The notes under the pieces were generated by a model, which made no database searches, had not been told where the DNA came from, and saw nothing but the letters and a program-made list of their open reading frames with translations. 64,000 nt of DNA from Candidatus Nomurabacteria bacterium (GTDB lineage Bacteria > Patescibacteriota > Minisyncoccia > Phycocordibacterales > UBA918). Positions 8,372-55,572 of the stretch are shown here, piece after piece. Location of the stretch: contig JACKGE010000001.1 in the NCBI GenBank assembly GCA_020632155.1, positions 314,285 to 378,284 on the forward strand, read 5' to 3'. A program made the translations under genes and the position numbers. The stretch's first letter is position 1. Every line of letters begins with the position of its first letter.

Positions 8372-8782
8372 CTATTCAACTCGTTGTAATACAGACTTCC
8401 AGCGACCCCGTCCACGCGGAGGCATTCCTGCTTGTAATATTATTTCTAAAACTTCCCAAAACTTTCGATAGTCAGACTTGTTTTGTTTTAATATCGTTTC
8501 GATGTGTTTGTACCGACCACATTCATAATCTAAACGTATCTTCTCAGCGGTTGACGGACTGAGTTGTAGTAATTGCCATACGCGATAAGAGGAATTACCT
8601 TCAATGAACATTGTTATCGCAGCCAATCTTTTGATCAGCATTATTTTTTCTTCAGGCCCAAGCAAATCGTCAAAAAAATGCACTGCTGAGTTAACATTTA
8701 AGTCAGCCACCACTTTTCCAAATTGTTGGTATAGCTTATCAAATTCAGTCGCAGGGAGCTTTCTCTTCGAGACATTGGTCAT
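8372..8782 (-). CDS. TrpR/YerC/YecD-like helix-turn-helix DNA-binding protein
   Basis: ...EEKIMLIKRLAAITMFIEGNSSYRVWQLLQLSPSTAEKIR... resembles the TrpR-like (YerC) HTH. Flanked by family-A palindromes: 5 nt upstream of the start, and inside the downstream terminator. Confidence 0.5.
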   Translation of the reverse strand: MTNVSKRKLPATEFDKLYQQFGKVVADLNVNSAVHFFDDLLGPEEKIMLIKRLAAITMFIEGNSSYRVWQLLQLSPSTAEKIRLDYECGRYKHIETILKQNKSDYRKFWEVLEIILQAGMPPRGRGRWKSVLQRVE

Positions 8783-8786
8783 AAAT

Positions 8787-8812
8787 TTATAGTACGGTTA
8801 ACCGTACTATAA
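8787..8812. promoter_or_regulatory. 26-bp perfect palindrome TTATAGTACGGTTAACCGTACTATAA; candidate operator 5 nt upstream of the TrpR-like gene start
   Basis: Direct reading. Same core as 8301-8356 and 55391-55412. Confidence 0.5.
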
Positions 8813-50605: not shown

Positions 50606-51049
50606 ACTGGCCACTGTTCACGGGAGTGAAGAACGCGTTTTTAAAGCGCGTTTCGAGTTTGGGTAAGTTCCTACTCGCACTGTCGGAGGGAGCAGCGTTT
50701 TTCGACAATACTCATCTGCACACATCAGCCAACAATTTATTTTTGTCTGATGTGTGCTGGTGAGGGTCATGTGTTTCAAAAGATTAATTGGAGAAACAGA
50801 TGATTTGAATAGATCAAATCAATCGACCTTATGATTGATTTGAGTACCAAGTTGTAATCAATTTATTTTGGTTATGACGGTACGCATCAGCAAGACAATT
50901 GAAATTTGTTTTTTCTTTTGTCTTATCCTTTAGGAGGTTCATTGAAGAGCGCTAACAGAGTACAGCGCACCGGAATGATGCATCTGCATGATTTCGATAG
51001 TAGATGAACCCAGGTAAGAACTACTTTAAGTAGATCCAAACCTGTCTTA

Positions 51050-52503
<1,454 letters not shown>

Positions 52504-52631
52504 AATTGGACACGTCGTGGTTGCTCTGGTAACAGAGTGACAACTCGCGGCTAATTGGTCGGTCTTATGTGCCTCAATTGAGCATGTAAGAGGTAATGAT
52601 ACTTGAACCTTTAGCTAGTATTTGACTGTAG

Positions 52632-53499: not shown

Positions 53500-53784
53500 A
53501 CTGGCAATTTTACCGCAAAATGGTCTTTTTTGGGCTGCACAAGCGGGATAAATAGTTTACGTTTGTGGGGTTTTTTGGTAGTATTGCGGGACTTTTGCAG
53601 AGTTTGACGACGTTGAACCCTGTGTCCGGGCTTATGGCTCTGAAACATAAACTGCTTTATGTTTCAGCCGGTCGTGACGTCAGGAACGAATTGCCGATAT
53701 TTATGAGGCGATAGGGTGGCTAGACAAGAGTTCGACTGACTTCTTACAGAAGCTGTCCAGTTTTTCAAAATTTTTTAAATTTGT

Positions 53785-53858
53785 CCGGGCTTAGCTCAGT
53801 TGGCTAGAGCGTTCGACTGATACTCGAAAGGTCCAAGGTTCAAATCCTTGAGCCCGGA
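53785..53858 (+). tRNA. tRNA-Ile (anticodon GAT), stand-alone
   Basis: Acceptor CCGGGCT/AGCCCGG, D-arm GCTC-AGTTGGCTA-GAGC, anticodon stem TTCGA/TCGAA with loop CTGATAC, T-arm CAAGG-TTCAAAT-CCTTG, discriminator A. No encoded CCA. Confidence 0.8.
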
Positions 53859-54064
53859 CAAATTTCGAAAATTTCAGAAAAACTCTTGCGTTGCTCCAAG
53901 TGTTCGCAACTCACTCGAAAGGTCCAAGGTTGACCTAGAAATTAGGGAGAGTTTACTCGACCATAATTTCGAAAATACTCTTGTGGTGGACCTAGAAAAT
54001 AATGACCGAAGGGAATATATTTTCGAAAATACTCTTGTGGTGCAAATCCTTGAGCCCGGACAAA
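53859..54064 (+). repeat. tRNA-Ile 3'-fragment copies interleaved with ~54-nt tandem repeats (att-like remnant)
   Basis: Partial tRNA copy TTCGCAACTCACTCGAAAGGTCCAAGGTT (53903-53931). Exact copy of the tRNA 3' end CAAATCCTTGAGCCCGGACAAA (54043-54064). Direct repeats (A)ATTTCGAAAATACTCTTGTGGTG at 53965-53988 and 54019-54042. Confidence 0.7.
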
Positions 54065-54228
54065 GGCTTTTATCATGGTTGATTTTCGACTGCCCGCTTA
54101 CAGCGGCTAGTCAGATTGTCAGTATTTTTCACAAGTTCAAAATACTAGGCAACCTCTTGCGAAAGTGTCTGGTGCTCGGACAAAAAGTGAGCTTTATTTT
54201 TAAAGCGCTTTGCACTAGTATTACACCC

Positions 54229-55572
54229 ATGGATTTCTCGGAACAGTTCAAAGGCAAGAAGATAACGGTTATGGGGCTCGGTCTTTTGGGTCGGGGTGTT
54301 GGTGACGCAGCGTATTTAGCCGAATGTGGCGCAGAAGTGACGGTTACCGACCTCAAATCTGAGGAACAACTTACCGATTCGGTCGAAAAACTTAAATTGT
54401 ACCCAAACGTACGTTTTGCGCTCAACGGACACAAAGAAGAAGATTTTGAAAACGTTGATATGGTACTTGTCGCTGCTGGGGTGCCGTTTGACTCTCCATA
54501 TTTAGCTCATGCCCATAAGGCCGGTGTGCCATTGAAGCAAAGTGCGGCACTCTTTGCTGAGTTATCTGGCATTCCTATTATTGGCGTTACCGGTACCCGC
54601 GGTAAAAGTACGGTCACTGCTATGGTCCATCATGTTCTGTCGGTCACTACCGGTGAACACATCATTAAGGGCGGTAATGTGCGTGGTGTCTCTAATTTAC
54701 AGTTGCTCAAAGAAGTGAAAGAAGACTCGTTAGCGGTACTGGAGCTTGATTCATGGCAATTGCAAGGTTTTGGGTGGGCTGGTATTTCACCGCAGATCGT
54801 GGTCTTCACCAATTTCATGCCCGATCACATGAATTACTATAAGAATGATATGGACGCATACTTTACGGATAAAGCAAACATCTTTTTACACCAAAAAGAG
54901 AGTGGCGTGTTCATCACGGTGCCGGAGGTATTTGAACGAGCAAAAAAAATGGCAGGCACACTTGGTCAGGAGGTGGTGTTGGTGGATGATTCAACCTTGC
55001 CAGAGGACGTACTGCTTTCAATGCCAGGTGAGCACAATCGCCTCAATGCCGCTCTAGCGGTGGCGGCCCTTCGCGCTGTTAGCCTCACGGATGAGGAAAT
55101 ATTTACTGGTCTTGCCAGTTTCTCTGGCGTTGAAGGTCGCTTGCAACTGCTCACAACCGTCGACAATGTTCGTATCTACAACGACAACAATGCCACTACA
55201 CCGCAGGCCACCGTAGCGGCTCTTGAAGCCCTTGATGTTGGCAACAAAAACATTGTGCTTATTGCGGGCGGCGCTGATAAAGGCCTTGAACTACTGCAGT
55301 TAACTGCGGCAATCAGGGAGCACTGTAAGCAAACAATACTTATCCCGGGTACCGGTACAGAGAGATTGCTCGCAGCTCTAGAGGGGGGAAATAGTACGGT
55401 TAACCGTACTATAGCAGTAGAAGATTTGCAGCAGGCAGTAGAAGAGGCGCGGCTGGCAGCCAAAAATGGCGATATTATCCTCTTTAGCCCAGCCTTCTCA
55501 TCATTCAGTCAGTACAATAATGAATATGAGCGTAATGATGAATTTGTTGAGTTAGTGAAAAAATATGAGTAA
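54229..55572 (+). CDS. murD: UDP-N-acetylmuramoyl-L-alanine--D-glutamate ligase
   Basis: MDFSEQFKGKKITVMGLGLLGRGVGDAAYLAECGAEVTVTD...IIGVTGTRGKSTVTAM... Start trimmed: the track ORF's first 127 codons read through tRNA fragments and repeats. Family-A palindrome embedded in-frame at 55391-55412. Confidence 0.85.
   Translation: MDFSEQFKGKKITVMGLGLLGRGVGDAAYLAECGAEVTVTDLKSEEQLTDSVEKLKLYPNVRFALNGHKEEDFENVDMVLVAAGVPFDSPYLAHAHKAGVPLKQSAALFAELSGIPIIGVTGTRGKSTVTAMVHHVLSVTTGEHIIKGGNVRGVSNLQLLKEVKEDSLAVLELDSWQLQGFGWAGISPQIVVFTNFMPDHMNYYKNDMDAYFTDKANIFLHQKESGVFITVPEVFERAKKMAGTLGQEVVLVDDSTLPEDVLLSMPGEHNRLNAALAVAALRAVSLTDEEIFTGLASFSGVEGRLQLLTTVDNVRIYNDNNATTPQATVAALEALDVGNKNIVLIAGGADKGLELLQLTAAIREHCKQTILIPGTGTERLLAALEGGNSTVNRTIAVEDLQQAVEEARLAAKNGDIILFSPAFSSFSQYNNEYERNDEFVELVKKYE

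Follow-up and report, generated by a model that had tools for sequence, protein, structure and literature searches.

A live tRNA-Ile gene nested within a disrupted copy of itself that is split by small structured repeats in a Candidatus Nomurabacteria genome

Results

We analyzed a stretch of 64,000 nucleotides (the window) from the genome of a Candidatus Nomurabacteria bacterium (Patescibacteriota; assembly GCA_020632155.1, contig JACKGE010000001.1, positions 314,285 to 378,284), focusing on the region upstream of murD in which an intact tRNA-Ile(GAT) gene (53785-53859; Rfam RF00005, 72 bits) is surrounded by tRNA fragments and short repeats. Coordinates without a prefix refer to the window, and all the features described at this locus lie on its forward (+) strand. 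This gene was the only tRNA that ARAGORN detected in the window. An initial annotation, made from the sequence letters, had noticed the intact gene, fragments of its 3' part downstream and two repeats, and all of these were confirmed. The segment ACTCGAAAGGTCCAAGGTT (tRNA positions 38-56) has an exact second copy at 53913-53931, two matches being found in 0 of 100 dinucleotide shuffles, and CCTTGAGCCCGGACAAA has one at 54048-54064, a count that was never reached in dinucleotide shuffles; the full exact copy of the tRNA 3' end, CAAATCCTTGAGCCCGGACAAA, spans 54043-54064 and comprises tRNA positions 57-75 plus AAA. These 3'-half fragments are separated by two units in head-to-tail order, one of 57 nt (53932-53988) and one of 54 nt (53989-54042). 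The units share their beginning, GACCTAGAAA, and their end, TTCGAAAATACTCTTGTGGTG, which has two exact occurrences (53968-53988 and 54022-54042; chance expectation 0), while their middles differ, so that the likeness is found only at the ends. The earlier description of two tandem repeats of about 54 nt thus needs correcting in the sizes, and the likeness of the units falls short of the 70% or more between head-to-tail copies that defines a simple tandem repeat. Tandem Repeats Finder did not call the units in the window because their middles differ, and its sole report was an unrelated 9-nt repeat.

Repeat searches also revealed pieces of the 5' half of the tRNA upstream of the live gene, TGTCCGGGCTTA at 53623-53634 (identical to 53782-53793) and AGAGTTCGACTGA at 53727-53739. 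Since 5'-half pieces lie upstream and 3'-half pieces downstream, the tRNA fragments are one outer, disrupted tRNA-Ile copy that encloses the live gene, and not the attL/attR pair that had been proposed. The outer copy begins with its 5' acceptor strand (TGTCCGGGCTTA), which pairs with 54053-54064 in the predicted fold. Its D-loop holds module A, a structured insert of about 80 nt (53635-53716) made up of a hairpin at 53640-53667, a short hairpin with a GNA loop and a hairpin with the loop GATATTTATGAG; an nhmmer model built from 14 homologous inserts matches 53637-53724 (E 1.6e-13). The 3' side of the D-arm and the 5' strand of the anticodon stem follow in degenerate form (TGGCTAGACAAGAGTTCGACTGA, 53717-53739; repeat search). 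The anticodon loop contains a long insert, the 5' end of which is module B (53740-53760), a hairpin CTTCT-TAC-AGAAG plus CTGTCCAG, and the 3' end of which is module C (53882-53912), consisting of ACTCTTGCG, a hairpin (GTTGC...GCAAC) and CTC. The live tRNA stands between them, and its leader (53761-53784; inverted repeats) pairs in the predicted fold with its trailer (53860-53881; repeat search) in a long helix that carries it. The stretch 53903-53912, earlier taken for a mutated anticodon loop, is actually part of the separate hairpin of module C. The exact copy of tRNA positions 38-56 (53913-53931) comes next, and after its GGTT the outer T-loop is occupied by the two units described above, hereafter element T copy 1 (nhmmer E 7.2e-10) and copy 2 (nhmmer E 2.6e-13), before the second exact piece (54043-54064) completes the outer copy.

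Further downstream, repeat search identified a third, degenerate unit (54085-54186) composed of TTCGACTG, module B', a central hairpin, module C' and CTGGTGCTCGGACAAAAA, with a degenerate third tRNA 3' end at 54169-54184. A 45-nt repeat links the two parts of the locus (53731-53775 and 54085-54129), and the small hairpin within it differs by compensatory changes, the hairpin of module B being repeated at 54093-54114 as CCGCT-TAC-AGCGG instead of CTTCT-TAC-AGAAG. For a transcript model of 464 nt (53612-54075), the predicted RNA fold was nested and closed by the outer acceptor helix, with an energy of -164.9 kcal/mol (z = -8.3 against shuffles). The intervening DNA contains no open reading frame (ORF) in the window except a spurious read-through, as had been noted before.

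To place this arrangement among related genomes, we used a scan of species-representative genomes for MurD relatives, which gave 80 loci (designated by L numbers, as are other loci outside the window) with 55-73% protein identity; 61 of them have a tRNA-Ile(GAT) near murD, at a very variable distance and in either orientation. Array features were counted within 800 nt of the tRNA-Ile across these 61 loci. An exact fragment of at least 14 nt of the own tRNA was present in 29, module A (nhmmer model) in 28 and element T in 18; 38 had at least one of the three and 23 had none. In about half of the loci tRNA-Ile is accompanied by partial copies of itself, most of them 100% identical to the cognate tRNA, and although the fragments mostly match their own tRNA exactly, the acceptor stems vary between genomes. 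The copies take three forms: some begin in the anticodon loop (position 33-38) and continue unbroken as far as the 3' end (L013, L046, L052, L016, L035, L044), others are nearly full-length (L047, L058), and others have about 54 nt inserted between positions 55 and 58 (L001, L051, L057, L067, L072). In L010, L016, L035, L044 and L053, 5' halves are also present upstream. The nested order of the window (5' half, A, B, tRNA, then C and/or 3' half) was also found in L016, L034, L035 and L044.

The placement of the modules was the same in different species, with A in the D-loop, B and C in the anticodon loop and T in the T-loop, and an additional module was found in the variable loop of L005, L008, L045 and L047. 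Module B recurs, again with compensatory changes, in L016, L034, L035, L044, L013 and L121, and the homologue of module C, AAGTCTTGCG-hairpin-CTC, precedes ACTCGAAAGG in L016, L034, L035, L044, L047, L008 and L121. The B-C units of the anticodon loop occur with or without a tRNA in their central hairpin, and the leader-trailer helix is kept, with different sequences, in L016, L013, L047, L052 and L058. Arrays are preceded by promoter-like motifs and followed by terminators, which suggests that they are probably co-transcribed with the tRNA. In this regard, TTACAT-N17-TATAGT motifs stand at the same position before the arrays of L013, L031, L035, L047 and L052; the putative promoter of the array in the window (TTTACG, 17-nt spacer, TAGTAT; 53556-53584), proposed from its position, was below threshold in a consensus scan. 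The earlier annotation had suggested a look at relatives for a conserved trailer. The same modules do occur at the same tRNA loops in many related species, but their layout varies between species and is fixed in the population, and this recurrence pattern is not that of a simple conserved trailer, nor does it match a recent integration scar. It had also suggested looking for an integrase at related loci; none was recognised when the ORFs of 70 aa or more in the large gaps that separate tRNA-Ile from murD were read by eye, with no profile search, at 19 loci.

Several further observations concern the modules and their hosts. The loop motif G[AT]KTTTAYGA (GATATTTATGAG, GAGTTTACGAAC) is common to a hairpin of module A (53697-53708) and to the variable-loop module (L045, L121, L008, L047), and its presence in otherwise different hairpins may reflect a shared binding site. 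Another tRNA, in L226, has a partial copy (8670-8790) whose D-loop likewise contains module A. Just downstream in the same locus (L226:8850-9490), the tRNA gene from which this partial 5' copy derives is split after CTGT of the anticodon loop by about 590 nt encoding an HNH-type endonuclease. Group I introns have been described at position 35/36 of tRNA-Asn and tRNA-Asp in Patescibacteria (PMC13011429), and the L226 interruption fits them. In L065 (1100-1620), the outer fragments have the acceptor GCGGCCG and the T-arm GTAGGTTCG...AGTCCTAC, whereas the live inner tRNA-Ile has the acceptor GCGAGTA; judging from these different stems, enclosing and enclosed copies would not necessarily share one lineage.

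Within the population of the window genome, the same architecture was found in a GenBank genome (L093), with 3 differences in 1204 compared positions, and in L217, with 1 in 1206. An identical A-to-G change in both T copies (53972 and 54026) accounts for two of the three differences of L093, a sign that the copies evolve in concert or undergo gene conversion. A look-up of the exact MurD product gave no match. Searches with the MurC and pilin genes returned, from the same population, contigs with the same architecture only, and thus no evidence of presence or absence. Three other, independent assemblies of this population (L218, L220, L221) end inside the live tRNA-Ile, at 53845, 53834 and 53818, which could be due to low coverage or to structural variants branching in the tRNA.

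We then characterized element T as a family. An initial profile built from eight copies included sites away from tRNAs among its results (L035:6868-6921 and L035:695-753, the latter within a terminator hairpin), and a metagenome scan with the pattern GACCTA-N(28-42)-GAARTRCYCTTGTGGTG gave at least 133 copies in at least 120 contigs, with head-to-tail arrays of up to three among the matches listed. T is 52-60 nt long and consists of GACCTA, a covarying stem of 7-9 bp, an internal GA/GA, a 2-bp stem usually with a 3-nt loop, and GGAARTRCYCTTGTGGTG. In a structure alignment of 53 diverse copies, both the 9-bp stem and the 2-bp apical stem had many double changes: 93.4% of the cells were paired, compared with 69.8% in shuffles and 42-50% in slid controls, and 176 cells were changed on both sides, compared with 58 in shuffles. 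The GA...GA dinucleotides flanking the apical stem were invariant, and a small 3' hairpin depends on counting G-T (G-U) wobbles as pairs. In 106 of 111 copies the forward strand gave a better fold than its reverse complement, indicating that T takes its structured form as a single strand and in one polarity. In 68 of the 111 copies the sequence between the GA dinucleotides accommodates a stem-loop; 56 of these had 3-nt loops, and 36 of the 56 were GNA triloops. GNA triloops closed by two G-C pairs make up the classic, very stable mini-hairpin of single-stranded DNA, d(GCGAAGC), and this resemblance hints that the structure of T concerns single-stranded DNA rather than RNA.

The insertion sites of T were also informative. 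Copies are intergenic and in either orientation. At 129 sites the left flank fits a degenerate motif, G(-4), N, [G/T](-2), [C/T](-1), with no single fixed sequence, and the right flank begins with C or A. Perfect flanking stems of at least 6 bp were found at 15 of the 129 sites compared with 2% of controls, a 6-fold enrichment, and T lies clearly inside the loops of terminator hairpins in L126, L155, L146 and L208. Insertion is precise: the outer 3' half of L016 is uninterrupted and represents an empty site, the live tRNA is a further one, and the window has two T copies at GGTT^CAAATCC. There is no target duplication and there are no terminal inverted repeats, the ends being GACCTA and GTGGTG. 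Reverse-oriented copies lie 2 nt further on (TTCG^A...), as is expected for a target at TT^CGAA, which is palindromic in L136 (TTCGAA) and near-palindromic in L051 (TTCGAC). T is also inside the loops of two recurring hairpins, GTCATCCTGAA...TTCAGGAT (L132, L139, L166, L186, L200) and GGATTCCCGT...ACGGGAAT (L117, L141, L147), which look like further dispersed repeat families in the metagenomes.

When T was deleted in silico and the sequences were reanalyzed with ARAGORN, a detectable tRNA was restored at 0 of 150 sites. T therefore lies in partial or dead copies and not in working genes, and the possibility that it is an intron of working genes was rejected. T is found close to tRNA genes of many kinds, and partial copies of tRNA-Val, Leu, Pro, Arg and Lys that carry it were found beside the real genes, showing that T in partial tRNA copies is a general phenomenon for tRNA genes in these bacteria. 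Other candidate identities were discarded as well: a CRISPR-like array (the tandem T copies have no spacers), a K-turn (there is no 3-nt bulge), a T-box-like interaction in which the T tail would pair with the 3' end of the tRNA (4 nt pairable at most) and an integron attC site (the T ends do not fit). Twelve matches of the T tail in viral contigs were attributed to chance, as they are without the hairpin. All these data indicate that the 54-nt units belong to a dispersed, structured and precisely inserted family, and that the modules are loop-specific and recur across species. The two units of the window are thus two insertions of this family into the T-loop, without duplication, and not repeats generated locally. 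Among the origins suggested earlier (a decayed element, a miniature element or repeated integration), the miniature element stands in part, because the units are copies of a small mobile-looking element.

Additionally, the window encodes a candidate trans-acting enzyme, a Y1 (HUH) transposase of the RAYT type of 223 aa (26156-26827, + strand; Pfam PF01797, E 1.2e-15), which scored 71.4 bits with NCBIfam REP_Tyr_transpos, under the cut-off of 80. The gene is flanked by the inverted 12-mers GGGTCAGACACC (26111-26122 and 26856-26867). The RAYT-like family is widespread in Patescibacteria, and at seven other loci the homologues are bordered by these GGTG[TG]CTGACCCCATTT flanks as well, in some cases by several copies of them. 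Together with its flanks, the gene appears to form a REPtron-like unit, conserved in many Patescibacteria and apparently present as a single copy. A comparison of GGTG-N3-GACC[CC]ATTT with the tail-head junction of T gave a weak resemblance only. A tblastn search for an IS608-like TnpA, with one IS608 TnpA sequence as the query, gave nothing significant in 1.6 Mb of loci, and no transposase-like ORF was seen by eye in L125, the locus richest in T.

Discussion

Taken together, our analysis suggests that the locus is a nest of selfish miniature hairpin elements in redundant tRNA copies, a reading to which we assign a probability of roughly 0.5. According to this model, a dead outer tRNA-Ile copy would have been colonised by small non-coding hairpin elements while the live gene came to be nested inside it. 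The outer copy is split at three loops, the D-loop by A, the anticodon loop by B and C and the T-loop by two T copies, with the central hairpin of B/C carrying the live tRNA on the long leader-trailer helix. The modules could be selfish elements that are moved in trans as single strands, most plausibly by a HUH/Y1 (IS200/RAYT-type) transposase. An insertion into the only copy of an essential tRNA gene would kill the cell, so that insertions would survive and accumulate solely in redundant duplicates beside the live gene, which could explain the persistence of the modules in such copies. The duplicates might arise easily, by duplication or by template switching, in very hairpin-rich DNA, and their identity with the live tRNA could reflect a recent origin or be maintained by gene conversion.

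Several results weigh against this model. The orientation of T has no bias relative to flanking genes (25 versus 27) or to local GC skew (40 versus 44), used as a proxy for the direction of replication, and the ends of T hardly vary even between hosts with MurD proteins that are only 57-73% identical. In addition, the copies bearing module A share a conserved GAGCTGA instead of TTAGCTCAG across genomes, which looks like an old paralogue under constraint and not like fresh duplicates. The array is fixed in the population (L093, L217), with no ongoing mobility seen. Regarding the enzyme, RAYT-like genes are flanked by GGTG[TG]CTGACCCCATTT, a repeat other than T, and no T was found within 10 kb of four RAYT-like homologues. 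Furthermore, clustering of all ORFs neighbouring T revealed no protein family enriched beside it, and no autonomous element sharing the ends of T was found that could be its parent. Taken on its own, the enzymatic step, in which a HUH/Y1 transposase would move the modules as single strands, is thus a tentative proposal that we consider doubtful.

A different possibility is that the live tRNA-Ile, the leader-trailer helix and the B/C ends constitute a mobile cassette whose homing target is the anticodon loop of a resident tRNA-Ile. Such an element would be self-rescuing and addictive, since it would kill the resident gene (the outer copy) and supply a working replacement. This would fit the fact that B-C units at one and the same site of the anticodon loop either contain a tRNA or lack one (53740-53912 compared with 54093-54167, L044 and L013), the occurrence of B-C units in both tRNA-Ile(GAT) and tRNA-Ile(TAT) (L121) and the different outer and inner acceptor stems of L065 (GCGGCCG and GCGAGTA). 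We regard this reading as rather unlikely.

The initial annotation favoured an integration scar. In such a reading, one or more tyrosine-integrase elements would have inserted in tRNA-Ile with crossover in the anticodon loop or T-loop, duplicating the 3' part, and then decayed to about 200 nt, as an accretion of miniature integrative elements. The downstream copies of many relatives do start at tRNA position 33-38 and reach the 3' end (L013, L046, L052, L016, L035, L044), trailers are duplicated along with the copies (L058, L013, L067), and the anticodon loop and the T-loop are reportedly the classical crossover sublocations of integrases at tRNA genes. A direct repeat of the tRNA 3' segment is also present in the window (53913-53931 and 54043-54064), but it is one 3' half split by T and not two att sites. 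Besides the missing ORF between the repeats of the window and the fact that no integrase was recognised among the ORFs read by eye at 19 related loci, 5' halves are also duplicated upstream (in the window and in L010, L016, L035, L044 and L053), the DNA between repeats consists of conserved modules at the same loops in many species, and T breaks the T-loop without a core repeat and is also found at non-tRNA sites and in both orientations. All this makes an integration scar improbable. Template switching or slippage in hairpin-rich DNA, without any mobile element, would account for the duplicated units that include trailers, for both T copies having changed together between strains and for a fold-back signature in L123 from the trailer to the duplicated 3' part (ctttttta-tt-taaaaaag). 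Such errors cannot explain the same 54-nt sequence with conserved ends at unrelated sites in many genomes (at least 133 copies) or the defined flank motif of T. Pure replication error is refuted for T by the dispersal of the family and is a possible source of the tRNA duplications only, and as an explanation of the whole locus we consider it very unlikely.

The arrays could instead have a role for the host, as one transcript forming a composite RNA on a tRNA-like scaffold, with possible roles in the control of tRNA-Ile processing, as a decoy for a tRNA-binding factor or as a trap for tRNA-targeting elements. The promoter-like motifs and terminators around the arrays, the extremely stable predicted fold and the insertion of modules in cloverleaf loops (D, anticodon, variable and T) and not in stems are in line with this, and module A has conserved loop sequences (GAT[AG]TTTA[CT]GAG) and covarying stems in copies that share GAGCTGA, unlike the live tRNA. 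Streamlined genomes also keep arrays at 38 of 61 loci. On the other hand, 23 of the 61 related loci are without an array, and the order, number and orientation of the modules vary greatly between species. T is found in both orientations within single arrays (L045, L072), which would destroy a strand-specific structure, and many copies are truncated or degenerate, including the outer D-arm of the window; a function of this kind is therefore hard to favour and, in our view, fairly improbable. The location of the inserts in loops would also be expected if the outer copy were a real tRNA-Ile gene with several introns, from which the modules are removed at the RNA level, and L047 has a complete second tRNA-Ile with module A only, in the D-loop (61 nt identical to the live gene). 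To our knowledge, bacteria lack the archaeal splicing endonuclease, and the modules (54-110 nt) are too small for self-splicing; they had no Rfam match, including group I models, at E up to 10 in the window and up to 1 in seven related loci. Additionally, copies with module A have no U8 and a mismatched D-stem (G13-G22), most copies are partial and T is also antisense. Group I introns are known at position 35/36 of patescibacterial tRNA-Asn and tRNA-Asp (PMC13011429), but the base before the anticodon-loop insert is A35 and not the U that they require. A multi-intron tRNA is thus extremely improbable.

When the locus is compared with known systems, each of the nearest ones failed at least one defining feature when tested. 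Like the REP/BIME-RAYT systems of Proteobacteria (REPtrons, REPINs), the elements described here are short, extragenic, dispersed, non-coding hairpin repeats that form mosaic clusters of several motif types, often near gene 3' ends and terminators, in a genome with a RAYT-like gene. T differs from REPs in its head (GACCTA, with no GTAG-type head beside the hairpin), in its long conserved 3' tail, in having only two copies in the 64-kb window and in not being the repeat that flanks the RAYT-like gene, and whereas REP-like elements co-evolve with their transposase, T is conserved across distant hosts. With the miniature elements derived from IS200/IS605 (PATEs), T shares the absence of terminal inverted repeats and target duplication, hairpins that differ in stability between strands and head-to-tail arrays. 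Where such elements have a specific target of 4-5 nt directly 5' of the left end, the left flank of T fits a degenerate motif; however, no parent IS with T ends was found, T (54 nt) is far smaller, and its orientation is unbiased relative to GC skew, unlike the biased orientation of IS200/IS605 elements. The lack of terminal inverted repeats and of target-site duplication also sets it apart from a classical miniature inverted-repeat transposable element (MITE).

Small hairpin repeats that tolerate or prefer sites in structured genes are also represented by the Rickettsia palindromic elements and by mitochondrial hairpin elements, such as the RHEs of sponges (PMC2800124). The elements of the window and its relatives reside in dead duplicates and not in the working gene, and they belong to another phylum and have other sequences. 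Direct repeats of the 3' part of a tRNA, from the anticodon loop or T-loop, resemble attL/attR duplications and CIMEs, from which the locus departs in its duplicated 5' halves, its loop-specific modules, the insertion of T without a repeat and the lack of an integrase among the related-locus ORFs read by eye. The multi-intron and split tRNAs of archaea (Thermoproteales, Nanoarchaeum) likewise have inserts in several loops, insert families common to tRNA genes and a leader-trailer helix next to the anticodon loop. Here the host is a bacterium, an intact gene lies alongside, there is no evident bulge-helix-bulge and the copies are partial or degenerate. Lastly, the group I introns already mentioned (PMC13011429) are found in the same phylum, in the same loop and at nearly the same position, and the L226 intron with its HNH gene adjoins a partial tRNA copy holding module A; in contrast to them, modules B and C have no match to Rfam group I models, measure 75-110 nt and follow A35 instead of U. 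That paper was the only related item returned by our full-text literature searches, in which neither these elements nor nested tRNA copies were found described, and the arrangement of a live tRNA inside a dead copy seems undescribed. Small selfish hairpin repeats are a known kind of element, while the tRNA-in-tRNA architecture is unusual and recurrent.

Patescibacteria have genomes of about 1 Mb with single-copy tRNA genes and are thought to be poor in repetitive DNA. The locus suggests that they carry more of it than thought, in the form of a widespread miniature structured family (T, and probably A and B-C) that favours the loops of hairpins and tRNA genes, and as a recurrent, odd gene architecture in which a dead copy of a tRNA encloses the live one. 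Should the elements prove mobile, this phylum, about whose mobile elements very little is known, would have a new class of mobile DNA directed at tRNAs; should the arrays have a function, they would be a new kind of tRNA-scaffold RNA. On the practical side, the repeats may explain assembly breaks at tRNA loci, and they create spurious long ORFs such as 53848-55572. The initial annotation was right to treat this ORF as spurious upstream of 54229, since MurD homologues align from residue 1-7 of the 447-aa product. Together with the annotation of a 447-aa MurD in a near-identical genome, these alignments place murD at 54229-55572 (+ strand), with its true start at 54229. A TAGTAT motif in the region 54216-54231, like the -10 box of the array promoter, ends 7 nt before the murD ATG, and therefore the murD mRNA may be leaderless.

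In addition, the rRNA genes of the window are unlinked, 23S (32291-35961) and 5S (36054-36164) being located 15 kb upstream of 16S (51047-52506) on the same strand. The 23S region, in which no intron family reached the Rfam gathering score, matches over 3671 nt a model of 2925 positions, which corresponds to about 750 nt of extra sequence.

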